The notes under the pieces: model-generated | The model's input: the letters and a program-made list of their open reading frames with translations, nothing else | Told to the model about the DNA's origin: nothing | The model's database searches: none | Program-made: the position numbers and the translations under genes | DNA from: a virus | IMG/VR virus record: IMGVR_UViG_3300031772_000075 | Direction: 5' to 3' (one strand) | Length of the DNA stretch: 43,188 nucleotides | In this document: piece by piece, positions 19,124 through 43,188 of the stretch | Numbering within the stretch: the stretch's first letter is position 1 | How the letters are laid out: each line of letters begins with the position of its first letter

Positions 19124-19187
19124 CGTAGCTCGGTCGGCGCCCGGCGTAACCTCCGCCATGGGCATTGCGCTCAAGGAGGCGAAGAGG

Positions 19188-20288
19188 ATGTACTCGGCCG
19201 TGAACTCTGAGAATAACGCAATTCATCACTTCTTGAACGTCTTTCGTGAGGCCGTCAACAAGAAGAGTGTGAATGCATCTCTAAACCTGGCATACCTACG
19301 TTCGGGGATACTCCAGTTTGTCGAGTATCAGGCTGAAGGCGGACAGAAGATGATGCTCCCTTACAGGGAGGCGTCATCTTCCTTGGAGCGCGCTCGACTG
19401 TTCGAAATCAGCCATGATGAATACCGTGAAATGCATGTGGCCATCCATGAGTCCCTAGGCCTTGCAGGGGAACAGCCTGGAGATGAAGAACTCGGCCGGT
19501 ATCAACCTGCGGTAGAAGATCTCATTTCTAAAGTCCCCTTTCCACCTCGTCTCCCGTTTCCGCATATCTATATTGGAATATCCAGTCCGGTAGTTCTGGA
19601 CGGGCGCATCCTGCTTTGCGGGTTCTTGCTGGGTCAGCACGGCCAGGCGTGGGAGCTCAGCATAGACTCTTCGAGGGAAGTTCCGATCGTAATGCCTCTC
19701 ACGACGGCTTGCTCCACATATCCGACCGCTCAGGACAAGAGTGTGGGCATTTGGAGGTCGAGGATAGCCGGTCAGTACTCGCCTGCCGCTTTCCTCATGT
19801 ATGAGATAGTGCAGGCAATCATCGGATTCCAAAATCTTAAGATTGAGGTTCCGGACCTCCTCACTAAGCTTTTGGCGAAGAAAAACCGAGTGCCGGGCTT
19901 CCCGAAGGTCGTTCCACCGCCTTTTTACCGTATTCCCCTTACAAATCAGATAGAACGAGTCAAACTTCAGATCCAGCGTCGAGAGATTTCGAAAGGTTCC
20001 TCTTTCTCATACGTTCATGACGTGTGTGGTCATTGGATGACGAGAATCGTTAAAGGCACGACGCCCATCGATCCCAAGTTGTTCAAAAGACTCGTGAAGC
20101 GTGAATACCTGATCTGGATGGACAGATCCAAAATGCCGAAAGAGTATCACGATCTGCTCTCGAAGCGTGGTGTTTATGCGAACTCAGACGAATGGGTCGC
20201 CATTCTTCGTTCTTGGAGAACGGACTTCAAGCGCCCGAAGAACCGTCCGGATCTCCCTTACGTTCCCGCGACGAGAGTTATGGAGTGA
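19188..20288 (+). CDS. hypothetical protein (366 aa) in a lower-GC island
   Basis: ATG with AAGGAGG 9 nt upstream. G+C drops visibly (about 50% by eye) exactly over this gene and returns to high G+C at both ends. No confident domain; weak PD-(D/E)xK-like hints only. Confidence 0.55.
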   Translation: MYSAVNSENNAIHHFLNVFREAVNKKSVNASLNLAYLRSGILQFVEYQAEGGQKMMLPYREASSSLERARLFEISHDEYREMHVAIHESLGLAGEQPGDEELGRYQPAVEDLISKVPFPPRLPFPHIYIGISSPVVLDGRILLCGFLLGQHGQAWELSIDSSREVPIVMPLTTACSTYPTAQDKSVGIWRSRIAGQYSPAAFLMYEIVQAIIGFQNLKIEVPDLLTKLLAKKNRVPGFPKVVPPPFYRIPLTNQIERVKLQIQRREISKGSSFSYVHDVCGHWMTRIVKGTTPIDPKLFKRLVKREYLIWMDRSKMPKEYHDLLSKRGVYANSDEWVAILRSWRTDFKRPKNRPDLPYVPATRVME

Positions 20289-35455: not shown

Positions 35456-36154
35456 ATGAAGACCTGTCCGAAGTGCGGGGGTACAAAGGATCTGAACGAA
35501 TTTTCGCCAAGCCGTCAGCATGTAGCGAGCTGGTGTCGTTCGTGCACAAATAAAACAACGCGCTTCGTCCGACTTCGGAACAAAATGGTGGCCATCGCCC
35601 GATATTCTGACGGCAAAATGGCGTGCTCTTGTTGTAGTGAACCTCGCATTGAGTTCTTGGTCATAGACCATCCGAACGGAGGAGGTGGAAAGCACAGAGC
35701 CTCTATCGGACATAATATTTACAGTTGGCTCAAAAAAGTCGGGTATCCGGACGGATTCCGGGTCTTGTGCTCGAATTGTAACTCGTCCATCGGCGCTTAC
35801 GGATACTGTCCTCATTCTGGTAGGACAAACTTTCCGGACGTTGTTCCCGAGATCAGACCTAGAGCTTTTCGTCGAGGTATGGGGCACCCCGGCCGGAAGC
35901 TGGACGATATCTCAGTTGCGGACATTCGGGAAGGTCTATGTCTCGGCGTCAGTCTCTCTTCTTTGTCCCGGAAGCACGGGGTCTCCATCCGGACGATCCG
36001 GAAGATCCGTGATGGGGAGGCGTGGGTCCATGCCGACGAGCCTCAGAACGCCCTCCACGAGCCTAATTCTCTCCTGCATAATATGGGTCGCGATGGTGAA
36101 GTATCTCAGTCCCCACATCTCCAGCATGAACTTAACGTAGCTGTCGATCCTTAG
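35456..36154 (+). CDS. HNH homing-endonuclease-like protein (N-terminal zinc ribbon, HNH core, C-terminal HTH)
   Basis: CPKCGG...CRSC zinc ribbon. The HNH core is IDHPNGGGGKHR...VLCSNCNSS. The C-terminal segment is helix-turn-helix-like (SLSRKHGVSIRTIRKIRDGEAW). The gene lies in a lower-GC island. The last ~70 codons overlap the convergent kinase gene. Confidence 0.75.
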   Translation: MKTCPKCGGTKDLNEFSPSRQHVASWCRSCTNKTTRFVRLRNKMVAIARYSDGKMACSCCSEPRIEFLVIDHPNGGGGKHRASIGHNIYSWLKKVGYPDGFRVLCSNCNSSIGAYGYCPHSGRTNFPDVVPEIRPRAFRRGMGHPGRKLDDISVADIREGLCLGVSLSSLSRKHGVSIRTIRKIRDGEAWVHADEPQNALHEPNSLLHNMGRDGEVSQSPHLQHELNVAVDP

Positions 36155-37031: not shown

Positions 37032-38132
37032 TCACACGGCCTCCGGAAGGTACTCGGAGAGGGTACGTCCGACCATGCGGCCACGGAGCTTCTTGAGAGC
37101 CTTCTCCTCTATCTGCCGGATTCTCTCACGGGACAGGTCGTAGCGGTCAGCGACCTCCTGGAGCGTCAGCTGGCCCGTGTCGTCGATTCCGAACCTGTGC
37201 CGGATGACGCGGGACTCGAACGGGTTGAGGCCTGAGAGGAGCGAGAGCAGCTCGTCGTTGGCCTCCGCCGAGAACAGGCTGTCGAGCGGGCTCGGGAACG
37301 TCTCCGACGTGAGCGTGTCCAGGAGGCAGAATCCCTCCTCCTCACCTGCCGGGGCGTCGAGGTGAAGGACCCTCTGCCGGCTCAGGAGCGCGGTCAGGAC
37401 CTTCTCGACGCTGATCTTGGCCGCCTTCGCCATCTGGTCCGGGTCCATGCCCGTCCCGTTCTCCGCCATGTGCCCGCCGTCCAGGCGCGAGAGCTTTTGG
37501 GCGAGCTCGCTCATGTGGACGGGGATGCGTATCGGGCCCTCCTTGTCCGAGACGGCCCGCTTGACGTGATGCCGAATCCACCAGACGGCGTACGTCCCGA
37601 ACCGGAACCCGCGGTCGACGTCGAACCGGTCGACCGCCCGCATGAGCCCGATGTTCCCCTCCTGAATAAGGTCGCCCAGGGTCTGGTGATGGCAAAGCCT
37701 GGCGTACTTCTTCACGATCGTGACGGTGAGGCGAAGGTTCGCCGTCACAAACTCGTTCTTGATGCGCTCTCGCCTGGCGTTCAGGCCTCCGACGCGACGG
37801 TCCTTAGACCCGACCGCGGCCGTCAGGCACTCCTGAAACCAGGTCCGGCCGGAGTCCGTGAGCCGGACGAACCGGACGACGTCCCTGTGAAGCCCGGACT
37901 TGTTGAACAGCCTGGCGGGAAGGTGAACCTCGTCCTCCTTCCCTGCGGCGGCCCTCAGGCTTGACTCGCTGGCCTTGTCCTTCAGGAAGGCCGCCACCAT
38001 GTCCGACTCGACGGTCATGAGCTTTCGGAACGTCGCCGTCTCCTCCTCGAAGGTCGGGACGGAGACCTCAGACATGCTGGAGAAGTACTTCGTAAGCGCG
38101 TTCCCGGGAGCGGTTTTCGCGTTCGAGGACAT
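37032..38132 (-). CDS. RpoD/RpoS-like sigma-70 family sigma factor (regions 1.2/2/3/4)
   Basis: ANLRLTVTIVKKYARLCHHQTLGDLIQEGNIGLMRAVDRFDVDRGFRFGTYAVWWIRHHVKRAV is near-identical in pattern to the RpoD region 2 consensus. Region 4.2 is LTLQEVADRYDLSRERIRQIEEKALKKLR. ATG preceded by AGGTGG. Confidence 0.85.
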   Translation of the reverse strand: MSSNAKTAPGNALTKYFSSMSEVSVPTFEEETATFRKLMTVESDMVAAFLKDKASESSLRAAAGKEDEVHLPARLFNKSGLHRDVVRFVRLTDSGRTWFQECLTAAVGSKDRRVGGLNARRERIKNEFVTANLRLTVTIVKKYARLCHHQTLGDLIQEGNIGLMRAVDRFDVDRGFRFGTYAVWWIRHHVKRAVSDKEGPIRIPVHMSELAQKLSRLDGGHMAENGTGMDPDQMAKAAKISVEKVLTALLSRQRVLHLDAPAGEEEGFCLLDTLTSETFPSPLDSLFSAEANDELLSLLSGLNPFESRVIRHRFGIDDTGQLTLQEVADRYDLSRERIRQIEEKALKKLRGRMVGRTLSEYLPEAV

Positions 38133-41479: not shown

Positions 41480-41516
41480 GCGTGACTTTACCGCAAGGCG
41501 GTCGCCTTATGGCAGG

Positions 41517-41937: not shown

Positions 41938-42333
41938 TCATTCCTCGTTACCTACGGCCGTCTGGCCGTAGCTTTTTGCGAGGCGCTCCTTTAGCGCCCC
42001 CATCTCTTTCGCCAGGGACTCCCTCTGGGATTCCGTTAGCGCAAGCCTTCTGTGCACTCGAAGCTCCTCCAGGAGCTCCGTCCCGCGCTGCTGAAGCTCG
42101 CCGACCTGGCGAAGCCGGTGGGCGTCGTCGTCAAGGAGCCTCTGCATCGTCTTTTTCGCGACGAGGAGGAGTCCGCCGCCGCTCGACGTGGTGAGGAACT
42201 CGTTGAGCTCCTCCGGGAGCCCGTTCGGGCCCTCTACCACGATCTTGAATGGCTTGCCGCGCCACACGCCCTCGCGTGAGAAAGAAACTTGTTCGTCCTG
42301 ATCCGTCACCGAGATCCTGATCGCGTCCTTCAT
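41938..42333 (-). CDS. hypothetical protein (131 aa)
   Basis: The ATG overlaps the stop of the upstream low-GC gene (ATGA). Its stop lies 1 nt before the RRM gene's ATG. Confidence 0.5.
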   Translation of the reverse strand: MKDAIRISVTDQDEQVSFSREGVWRGKPFKIVVEGPNGLPEELNEFLTTSSGGGLLLVAKKTMQRLLDDDAHRLRQVGELQQRGTELLEELRVHRRLALTESQRESLAKEMGALKERLAKSYGQTAVGNEE

Positions 42334-43046
42334 GTCCCGATTTTACAGTCTGTCAGGTTCTTGGGATTTACATTTGCGACTGCTTTACAGAACCCGAGGA
42401 GCTCGGAGTCGCTGAAATTTGATCGGGCCACGTTCGCCATGAACGTTACAAACCTTACATTTCCCTTGAGATACCCAACTGCATGATCCATTCGGTCCAA
42501 GCTCGCATTACACGGGTTCCGGACTGCCCATCCGATAGCACCGTCCGGGAGAACCATTCCCAAGGATGAAAGAGCGCAAAGACCTCTCTGACTTTCCCAC
42601 AACAGTTTTAGAAATGGTAGGTCTAAGTCGGTTTCCCCCTTGTGATGTCGTTGCCGAGCTCTTGTCAAAAACCAACGAAATTGAGAGTATTCATCCTTCA
42701 CTCCACCCCGATTCAGCTGGTCAGCCTTCGGCGGGGTCCGTCGGTTCCTATCCCTTAGGTGACAGGCCGTCGAACAAAAGAAATGGGAACGACCCCTCTT
42801 TTGCCACCTATCTACTTCCCGCTTTTCTTTGGGAAAAGGGTTCTGGCACAGGTGACACTCTAATTGGATCAGAGAACGAGACCCTGAGTAGGTTTCCCCG
42901 TACCTCTCAGCATTGGTCGTTTTCACCTGACACGAGGTCGAACAGAAGAACCTAGTCACTCCTCTTCGAAGCTGTCGTTCGTGCTCTTTCCTCGGTTTGG
43001 GAAATGGTTTTTGACATGTCGGACAGTTCAGTTCCACCCAGTTCAT
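42330..43046 (-). CDS. double zinc-ribbon protein with C-terminal HNH-like (HNH_3-type) endonuclease domain, in a lower-GC island
   Basis: Two repeated modules: NCPTCQKPFPK...FFCSTSC and ECHLCQNPFPK...FFCSTAC. The C-terminus SLDRMDHAVGYLKGNVRFVTFMANVARSNFSDSE resembles the H..N..N core of phage HNH_3 endonucleases. GC is visibly lower (about 50% by eye). Confidence 0.55.
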   Translation of the reverse strand: MNWVELNCPTCQKPFPKPRKEHERQLRRGVTRFFCSTSCQVKTTNAERYGETYSGSRSLIQLECHLCQNPFPKEKREVDRWQKRGRSHFFCSTACHLRDRNRRTPPKADQLNRGGVKDEYSQFRWFLTRARQRHHKGETDLDLPFLKLLWESQRGLCALSSLGMVLPDGAIGWAVRNPCNASLDRMDHAVGYLKGNVRFVTFMANVARSNFSDSELLGFCKAVANVNPKNLTDCKIGT

Positions 43047-43083
43047 GTTTCACTCTACCGAGTGGTGGAACTGGGTGGAACTG
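43029..43083. repeat. perfect 16-bp inverted repeat (23-nt loop) spanning the start codon of the HNH-like gene, 5 nt from the tmRNA 3' end
   Basis: + strand arms cagttccacccagttc (43029-43044) and gaactgggtggaactg (43068-43083). The right arm is itself a tandem ggtggaactg x2. The ATG at 43044-43046 (minus strand) lies at the arm/loop junction. Confidence 0.8.
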
Positions 43084-43088
43084 ATTTG

Positions 43089-43188
43089 TGGAGCAGGCGG
43101 GAGTCGAACCCGCGTCCACGAGACCTGTTACTTAGTCCTCTACGTGCGTATCCGAGGATACCCCGTCGGCAGGGTGCGCGGGTTCGGC
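43089..43188 (-). ncRNA. ssrA: tmRNA (ssrA-like) 3' portion; gene continues beyond the window end
   Basis: The minus-strand RNA ends ...GGACGCGGGTTCGACTCCCGCCTGCTCCA. This matches the conserved tmRNA T-arm and acceptor 3' end (E. coli ...GGACGCGGGTTCAACTCCCGCCAGCTCCACCA). The terminal CCA is not encoded. Confidence 0.6.

Follow-up and report, generated by a model that had tools for sequence, protein, structure and literature searches.

What is a small gene of foreign base composition doing directly behind a transfer-messenger RNA (tmRNA) gene in a phage genome, and why does a perfect hairpin lie across its start codon? Both questions are raised by one end of the IMG/VR virus record IMGVR_UViG_3300031772_000075, a stretch of 43,188 nt that is referred to here, at its full length, as the window. 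A first-pass annotation made from the sequence alone had placed a tmRNA 3′ end on the minus strand at the window edge, followed by an inverted repeat and a low-GC, HNH-like gene, and had offered three roles for the repeat: a terminator or processing hairpin of the tmRNA, a translational off-switch for the endonuclease, or an att-like or homing-endonuclease recognition site. Our analysis favors, as the likely explanation, a free-standing homing-endonuclease-type cassette that is specialized on tmRNA genes and carries its own translational occlusion hairpin. The elements at the window edge are as follows.

43086-43188, minus strand: 3′ 103 nt of a phage-encoded tmRNA (Rfam RF00023)
43068-43084, minus strand: 5′ arm of the hairpin, UCAGUUCCACCCAGUUC, holding two tandem copies of CAGTTCCACC that resemble a tmRNA 3′ terminus (YTCCAC)
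43052-43059, minus strand: −10-like box GGTAGAGT in the hairpin loop, 5 nt ahead of the ATG
43028-43044, minus strand: 3′ arm of the hairpin, GAACUGGGUGGAACUGA, made up of the G of the ATG and codons 2-6 (N-W-V-E-L)
42330-43046, minus strand: endonuclease-like open reading frame (ORF) of 238 residues (PHROGs, family alignment, AlphaFold2 model and Foldseek)
About 42891-43046, minus strand: zinc ribbon 1 of this ORF
About 42735-42878, minus strand: zinc ribbon 2 of this ORF
About 42369-42695, minus strand: HNH/EndoVII-like His-Me domain of this ORF (D184-R185...N196...N205)

A phage tmRNA, an HNH-like gene and a cassette-borne hairpin

The window is the replication/early module of a large phage, with large ORFs for a DnaB-like helicase, a family A DNA polymerase (PolA), DnaJ, RecA, an SMC-like ATPase and a sigma-70 factor (37032-38132), and its relatives are contigs of 40-140 kb dense in small unannotated genes. 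The tmRNA is therefore phage-encoded and belongs to the phage itself, not to a host ssrA locus. Although its 5′ end is cut by the window edge, the truncated copy scored 49.1 bits against RF00023 (gathering score, 47), and the gene has a tRNA-like 3′ domain with a T-arm, a G3-U acceptor, the acceptor 3′ strand CTGCTCC and a discriminator A at 43089, followed by CAA rather than CCA; ARAGORN called no tmRNA in the window, the copy being truncated. Supporting the first-pass reading of a tmRNA, the complete gene was recovered in L100 (3335-3680; 127.8 bits; tag ANDNANRIAA). L100, L101 and L102 represent the phage type of the window, and L100 shows 100% identity to it in the loop, the 5′ arm and the 3′ part of the tmRNA. 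Contig L099 matches the window at 100% identity over 3 kb. Directly upstream of the tmRNA, the window’s phage group carries a transfer RNA (tRNA) with anticodon CTA, of the amber-suppressor type and labeled ‘Pyl’ by ARAGORN (L100, 3241-3317; L001, 5518-5594; L091, 3491-3564; L005, 1211-1282; L013, 6019-6090); TAG is the stop codon of many window genes, and read-through or recoding of TAG is possible.

The ORF behind the tmRNA has a GC content of 50.2%, and of 53% at third codon positions (GC3), against 62%-69% and 80%-94% in its neighbors, which agrees with the foreign origin first proposed for it. Its protein contains two CxxC...CxxxC modules, a doubling still visible as a 168-nt DNA repeat, and these zinc ribbons resemble MYM-type (ZMYM5), TRASH and L24e modules. 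A typical homolog has ~180 residues, with a single CxxC...CxxxC ribbon and the C-terminal domain, the latter being doubled in other members; a search of 5.8 billion clusters yielded only 58 homologs. The protein matches PHROG families 3322, 1035 and 3118 (phrog_3322, ‘endonuclease’, 1.4e-16; phrog_1035, ‘endonuclease VII’, 6e-9; ‘HNH endonuclease’, 8e-5), while searches of Pfam and NCBIfam gave nothing significant, the only weak Pfam matches being TRASH_ZMYM4 and DUF7836. A confident AlphaFold2 model built on the family alignment (predicted local distance difference test score (pLDDT), 88.6) shows a predicted beta-beta-alpha-metal fold. Its top Foldseek match in the PDB was the HNH enzyme PacI (3ldy; probability 1.0, E 6.6e-3, target-normalized TM-score 0.52), followed by the Gme HNH nickase (4h9d) and Cas9 HNH domains. 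The motifs S-L-D-R, G-Y, N-V-R-F-V and N are invariant in the family, N196 and N205 are conserved, and the C-terminal tail is unconserved and of low pLDDT. The label ‘HNH-like’ is thus right for the predicted fold and in keeping with the PHROG matches, but membership in a curated HNH family fails.

The inverted repeat is exactly where it had first been placed, with arms at 43029-43044 and 43068-43083 that pair perfectly over 16 bp around a 23-nt loop and with the ATG of the endonuclease gene (43044-43046, minus strand) on the loop/arm junction; the stem can be extended to 17 bp (43028-43044 and 43068-43084), and the hairpin begins 2-5 nt past the tmRNA end. Folded as RNA, this region reaches −39.4 kcal/mol (z = −7.1), and none of 200 shuffled sequences folded as well. 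Pairing is kept through compensatory changes (GAA>GAG with T>C; AAC>GAA with GTT>(C)TTC) in L090 and L005, whose hairpins have z values of −5.8 and −5.6 and whose proteins are 68% and 50% identical to that of the window. Across 29 folded family spacers, the mean z was −3.65, with 20 of the 29 below −2 and the Shine-Dalgarno (SD) sequence or start codon paired in nearly all, so that a stable stem sequestering the ribosome-binding site (RBS) or start codon is present, as in the I-TevI, segB and mobE genes. Of the three roles first offered for the repeat, the translational off-switch is accordingly the best supported.

Three observations indicate that the hairpin is part of the cassette and travels with the gene. 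Both arms fall within the inserted block defined below; alleles without the endonuclease gene (L091 and L095) have no hairpin after the tmRNA; and in L024, where the endonuclease gene and the tmRNA converge, the 5′ end of the endonuclease gene still has the hairpin (CCACCTCCAC..GGTGGAGG), ~530 nt from the tmRNA end.

The −10-like box GGTAGAGT, a putative promoter, lies within a small inner stem, CACUC/GAGUG (43051-43064), and the copy at 43052-43059 is the sole exact one in the window. In the window’s phage group, a box of the form [TG]GTA[GA][AG]GT occurs 9-40 nt upstream of 5/5 tmRNA genes and 0-5 nt before 4/4 endonuclease ATGs; its stricter form, GGTA[AG]AGT, has five copies in the window, all on the minus strand. 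Lineages of low GC content have TGTATAAT-type boxes in their hairpin loops. The GGTAAAGT boxes are likewise found on the minus strand only (41485-41492, 35421, 21900 and 17559), and the one at 41485 stands exactly 5 nt before the ATG of a DUF3307 gene, spaced just as the loop box is from the endonuclease ATG, which suggests leaderless transcripts from a phage-specific promoter type.

Linkage of the gene family to tmRNA genes

Scanning IMG/VR with the family alignment yielded 51 further loci, where a scan with a single protein as query had found nothing, and scanning GTDB genomes yielded only three loci, all in metagenome-assembled genomes (MAGs); the family is therefore essentially phage-borne. 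With tmRNA genes called by ARAGORN and Rfam and lineages defined at 80% identity, 43 lineages were obtained, 41 of them informative. Every homolog lineage that was looked up adjoins a tmRNA gene, and over the full set a tmRNA is abutted or occupied by the family gene in 39 of the 41 informative lineages. The arrangements are as follows.

33 lineages: directly downstream of a one-piece tmRNA, on the same strand, with a spacer of 0-80 nt
3 lineages: between the acceptor piece and the coding piece of a two-piece (permuted) tmRNA
2 lineages: convergent, with the stop codon 4-13 nt from the tmRNA 3′ end
1 lineage: tmRNA-like pieces on the flanks (L048)
1 lineage: tmRNA 650 nt downstream, past tRNAs (L040)
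1 lineage: no tmRNA (L030/L032)
2 lineages: at a contig edge and uninformative

At the two-piece loci (L051, 2400-3200; L060/L062, 2400-3200; L065, 2366-3138), the endonuclease gene follows right after the CCA of the acceptor piece, within an intervening segment of ~600 nt, a nesting comparable to that of intron endonucleases in introns. These calls rest on direct reading of the sequence rather than on Rfam scores, because the permuted-tmRNA model also fires on a tRNA plus the 5′ half of a tmRNA; thus RF04321 scored 54 bits on L100 (3255-3452), a false positive at an ordinary tmRNA. In the two-piece genes, the two strands of the acceptor complement each other, the coding piece is not followed by a 3′ tRNA-like end, and the encoded tags are ADESLALAA, NDVETYALAA and AEPSFALAA.

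Loci that match only the C-terminal domain (n = 16) have no tmRNA. More distant homologs occur in classic homing contexts, namely a group I intron (crAss-like phage cr128_1) and an nrdD fragment (Proteus phage Privateer), and no tmRNA was found upstream of the crAss-like homologs. In cr128_1 (L088, 3036-3305, minus strand), the homologous ‘endonuclease’ gene abuts the group I intron (86 bits); in cr56_1 (L087), the homolog is followed by RAGATH-20 and RAGATH-9 RNAs (3307-3404 and 4051-4208, minus strand). No prior description of a tmRNA-linked endonuclease was found in the searchable open-access literature.

Two loci of the family have unusual layouts. L048 (2366-3086) has a piece resembling a tmRNA 5′ end (GGGGGTGAGAAAGGATTCGA...) upstream of the endonuclease gene and, right after the gene, a 69-nt ‘mini tmRNA’ consisting of the tRNA-like domain only; this locus may be a rearrangement intermediate. 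L007 (3559-4981), on a bacterial contig of 0.5 Mb, encodes a 326-residue member with a doubled C-terminal domain; the gene follows the tmRNA of the bacterial chromosome, with the ATP synthase operon on one side and a TnpB gene on the other. At this cyanobacterial-type locus, the equivalent hairpin is followed by a U-run and is terminator-like.

Insertion, allele exchange and decay

Comparison of genomes with and without the gene, a step that the first-pass annotation had proposed, delimits the insertion. The features that emerge are as follows.

42358-43084, minus strand: inserted block (approximate) relative to the endonuclease-less alleles L091 and L095, from junction reading and blastn
42334-42357, minus strand: remnant of the ancestral tmRNA-to-neighbor spacer, now coding the ORF’s non-conserved C-terminal tail, from by-eye alignment with the L091 and L095 spacers
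41938-42333, minus strand: downstream resident gene of 131 residues, without a family, 91% identical in amino acids to its L091 homolog
42626-43053, minus strand: segment of 428 bp deleted in L100, L101 and L102, bounded by TAGA microhomologies (blastn)

In L091 and L095, the same neighbor gene (91% and 66% amino-acid identity) lies 41-44 nt past the tmRNA and there is no endonuclease gene; the RRM protein beyond the neighbor gene is 96% identical in L091. By blastn, the flanks of these endonuclease-less relatives are 86%-88% identical to the window and the inserted block is absent, a presence/absence polymorphism at one site among close relatives, as is characteristic of homing genes. The block, of ~0.73 kb, holds the endonuclease ORF alone, with its left junction after ...CTCCACAAA and its right junction before CCTGACAGACTGTAAAATCGGGACATGA. 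The ORF’s unconserved tail corresponds to the old spacer, and the ATGA shared by its stop codon and the next gene’s start (42330-42333), from which an embedding in the operon had been read, is therefore incidental: the overlap is real, but it arose because the cassette went into a spacer of 41 nt, the ORF running on through what is left of that spacer as far as a TGA that overlaps the ATG the neighbor had originally.

The tmRNA itself differs between alleles. When L090, which has the gene, was compared with L095, which lacks it, blastn aligned the two flanks at 86% and 85% identity and left the tmRNA-plus-endonuclease block unaligned; that block aligned instead to L001 at 74%, and it starts with a stub of the donor’s tRNA-CTA. 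The window shows the same blastn pattern against L091. The tmRNA allele therefore travels with the endonuclease gene, a replacement that, on sequence comparison, is as would be expected for co-conversion.

The gene is also being lost. In the deletion allele of L100, L101 and L102, positions 1-135 of the reverse-complemented window were matched at 100% identity by blastn, and the alignment resumed from position 564 onward at 95%-97% over 970-1029 nt. With the 428 bp deleted in between, the gene loses both zinc ribbons, its ATG and the 3′ arm, and the −10 box loses its end; this is a decaying allele in which the gene has been destroyed. Both the GC3 contrast and the deletion allele are signs of the foreign origin and the invasion and decay that mark homing genes. 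Collectively, gene presence/absence, tmRNA-allele replacement and deletion appear to trace the course of a free-standing homing endonuclease, from invasion through co-conversion to decay, and the homing idea of the first-pass annotation, which was attached to the repeat as a recognition site, proved right in spirit.

Two further differences were noted next to the insertion. Relative to L091 and L095, the neighbor gene has a 24-nt in-frame insertion after its ATG (KDAIRISV; 42306-42330, minus strand) that includes a partial duplication of GATCAGGA and may be a scar of cassette insertion. In L091 (5109-8378), L092 and L093, type I-C cas genes (Cas5d, Csd1 and Cas7) stand just after the RRM gene, where the window has other genes.

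Based on these findings, we propose a plausible mechanism for the cassette, which is inserted 3-5 nt after the 3′ end of the tmRNA gene of a large phage. When related phages that lack the gene infect the same cell, the enzyme is predicted to cut their tmRNA loci close to the tmRNA 3′ end, and repair from the endonuclease-bearing genome would then copy the cassette together with the adjacent tmRNA allele; once fixed, the gene would decay. On transcripts that read through from the tmRNA, the 17-bp hairpin would bury the start codon, or in low-GC relatives the SD sequence, so that the endonuclease would not be translated from the pre-tmRNA. The −10-like box in the loop may start transcripts that lack the 5′ arm and that would be translatable and, in the window, nearly leaderless. 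Such silencing would be especially needed for a gene that directly follows, or is nested in, the gene of a structured and highly transcribed RNA.

Several points weigh against this reading. The phage is uncultivated. Arg (R185) replaces the general-base His of HNH enzymes in every member (D-R...N...N), and the Pfam HNH, HNH_3 and Endonuclease_7 models do not match the protein, so that its catalytic competence is putative. The first-pass annotation had looked to close relatives that keep the gene for an intact repeat, and this expectation holds, by compensation, in L090 and L005 but not in the closest protein relative, L001 (72% identity), where the hairpin is degenerate (z −0.6); it is also weak in L013, L026, L028, L055 and L056. 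A consensus scan detected no canonical sigma-70 promoter. Window-wide, GGTAGAGT at one mismatch is not enriched and the enrichment of −10-like motifs is mild; the strand bias of GGTA[AG]AGT and its fixed place before tmRNAs are the only informative aspects of this motif. Ordinary phage mosaicism, rather than co-conversion driven by the endonuclease, could explain the exchange of the tmRNA-plus-endonuclease block, and a functional link to tmRNA could underlie the strictness with which the family is associated with it.

Alternative explanations and known systems

A possible and attractive but doubtful addition, compatible with a homing cassette, is that the inverted repeat is a DNA operator or target mimic that the endonuclease binds for self-repression. 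The arms would then be direct and inverted copies of a tmRNA-3′-end-like sequence (YTCCAC/GTGGAR) flanking the putative promoter. The remaining family spacers that were read do have a YTCCAY element, 3-13 nt ahead of their −10-like box, and in six lineages an 8-nt stretch of the arm equals the terminus of the locus’s own tmRNA (own-versus-other permutation, p about 0.02), although this covariation is weak, with mean matches of 5.4 and 5.0 nt. T4 provides a precedent in the homing-site-like operator of I-TevI, which overlaps its promoter (PMC2988022). However, any arm that occludes an SD sequence needs CTCC anyway, and in the window’s clade the 3′ arm encodes a conserved V-E-L motif that alone could be enough to fix the sequence; the 9/19 identities with the target region of endonuclease-less alleles, aligned by eye, are unremarkable. 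We also entertain, tentatively, a wider and rather unlikely proposal in which a dedicated homing-endonuclease lineage lands on the conserved tmRNA 3′ end and drives tmRNA-allele replacement in large phages and occasionally in bacteria. Here, the cassette would carry the direct and inverted mimic of its target for autoregulation, and the family would be causal in permuted tmRNA, which would be made or kept through tandem duplication around the insert followed by loss.

It is unlikely that the protein is a non-selfish functional partner of the phage tmRNA, such as an RNA-binding or processing factor or a nuclease directed against the host ssrA gene, with the hairpin coupling its expression to tmRNA transcription. 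Such a partner would account for the near-exclusive association with tmRNA in 39 of 41 informative lineages, for the short same-strand spacer in 33 of them, for ribbons like those of L24e and MYM/TRASH modules and for the Arg in place of the catalytic His. It fits poorly with close relatives that have a tmRNA and no such gene, with a gene undergoing deletion within the same phage population, with the convergent orientation in two lineages, with the foreign GC3 and with homologs at a group I intron and at nrdD.

Even less room is left for a hairpin that serves the tmRNA as a terminator or as a 3′-processing or protection structure and overlaps the start codon incidentally, a role that we consider very unlikely. 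The hairpin starts 2-5 nt past the tmRNA end, and in L007 a U-run after the stem gives it the look of an intrinsic terminator. In the window, by contrast, the sequence after the 3′ arm is ACUGUCCGACAUG, without a U-tract, and an intrinsic-terminator scan returned no terminator-like site in 42200-43188. Moreover, from lineage to lineage the 3′ arm tracks the SD sequence or start codon, no hairpin follows the tmRNA in endonuclease-less alleles, the L024 hairpin sits at the gene’s 5′ end far from the tmRNA, and both arms are within the inserted block.

The integration hot-spot or att site that had been considered for this locus, in the form of an integrase-type genomic island or a prophage att junction at a host ssrA gene, is scarcely credible: tmRNA 3′ ends are classic att sites and the adjoining gene is of foreign GC, but the tmRNA is found within phage genomes, with tRNA-CTA and phage replication genes as its neighbors, the window’s 43 kb hold no second tmRNA 3′ end within 3 mismatches and no other copy of the 16-mer, the 0.73-kb insert comprises the endonuclease ORF only with no integrase within it, and the arrangement recurs in dozens of phage contigs. 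According to work attributed to K. P. Williams, islands and prophages reportedly integrate into the ssrA 3′ end, and group I introns are said to occur in tmRNA genes. As with those islands, the tmRNA 3′ region is again a landing place for mobile DNA, with a short tmRNA-3′-end-like repeat adjoining. The window insert differs in having neither an integrase nor flanking att repeats and in the phage-borne nature of its tmRNA, and the family inserts just outside the RNA gene or in the excised segment of two-piece genes.

A homing cassette of the favored type is reminiscent of SegB, a GIY-YIG homing endonuclease whose free-standing gene lies in the tRNA gene cluster of T4. SegB has demonstrated activity and promotes preferential inheritance of itself and the flanking RNA genes (PMC2330249; PMC2988022); a hairpin sequesters the RBS of segB, and a late promoter is predicted nearby (PMC2988022). 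The window gene is likewise free-standing among small stable-RNA genes of a phage. It differs in its His-Me/HNH-like domain, in having a tmRNA rather than tRNAs as neighbor and in that its activity is predicted, not demonstrated. More generally, in I-TevI, I-TevII, I-TevIII, segB and Aeh1 mobE, read-through transcripts have their RBS hidden by a very stable stem, and in genes of the I-TevI type an internal late promoter yields transcripts without the 5′ arm (PMC2988022). The window hairpin, together with its putative loop promoter, would match this layout of occlusion plus internal promoter. Here, however, the upstream unit is an RNA gene, the 3′ arm consists of coding codons 1-6, the predicted transcript is nearly leaderless and GGTAGAGT is not a T4 late promoter. 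With HNH/EndoVII nucleases (PacI, 3ldy; Gme HNH, 4h9d; PHROG 3322/1035; T4 MobE-type), the protein shares the predicted beta-beta-alpha-metal fold and zinc modules, whereas its motif is D-R...N...N with an invariant G-Y rather than H-N-H, and it is unusual for such a domain to be joined to N-terminal MYM/TRASH/L24e-like ribbons.

Phage-encoded tmRNAs tend to be treated solely as cargo with which huge phages rescue translation, and the tmRNA is, to our knowledge, an RNA gene conserved in all bacteria. Our results suggest a selfish endonuclease family that is specialized on tmRNA and apparently shuffles tmRNA alleles between phages. They point to a concrete, testable homing system for a universally conserved RNA gene, to a family from which very rare-cutting enzymes directed against the tmRNA 3′ end might be obtained and to an independent example, outside the T-even phages, of silencing on read-through transcripts by a hairpin plus an internal promoter. 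For annotation, they carry the warning that a low-GC gene beside ssrA is not necessarily an integrase-type island.

Elsewhere in the window, a second low-GC island (35456-36154, plus strand), on the strand opposite to its neighbors, encodes an HNH/endonuclease VII-like protein (phrog_2255, 4.9e-16) that is probably another free-standing homing endonuclease. The stretch of lowest GC content (47%-51%; 19158-20288, plus strand) holds a 376-residue ORF with no Pfam or PHROG match, and a 907-residue protein encoded at 3478-6201 (plus strand) has Major Vault Protein shoulder and repeat domains (Pfam MVP_shoulder, 1.3e-24), which is unusual in a phage.

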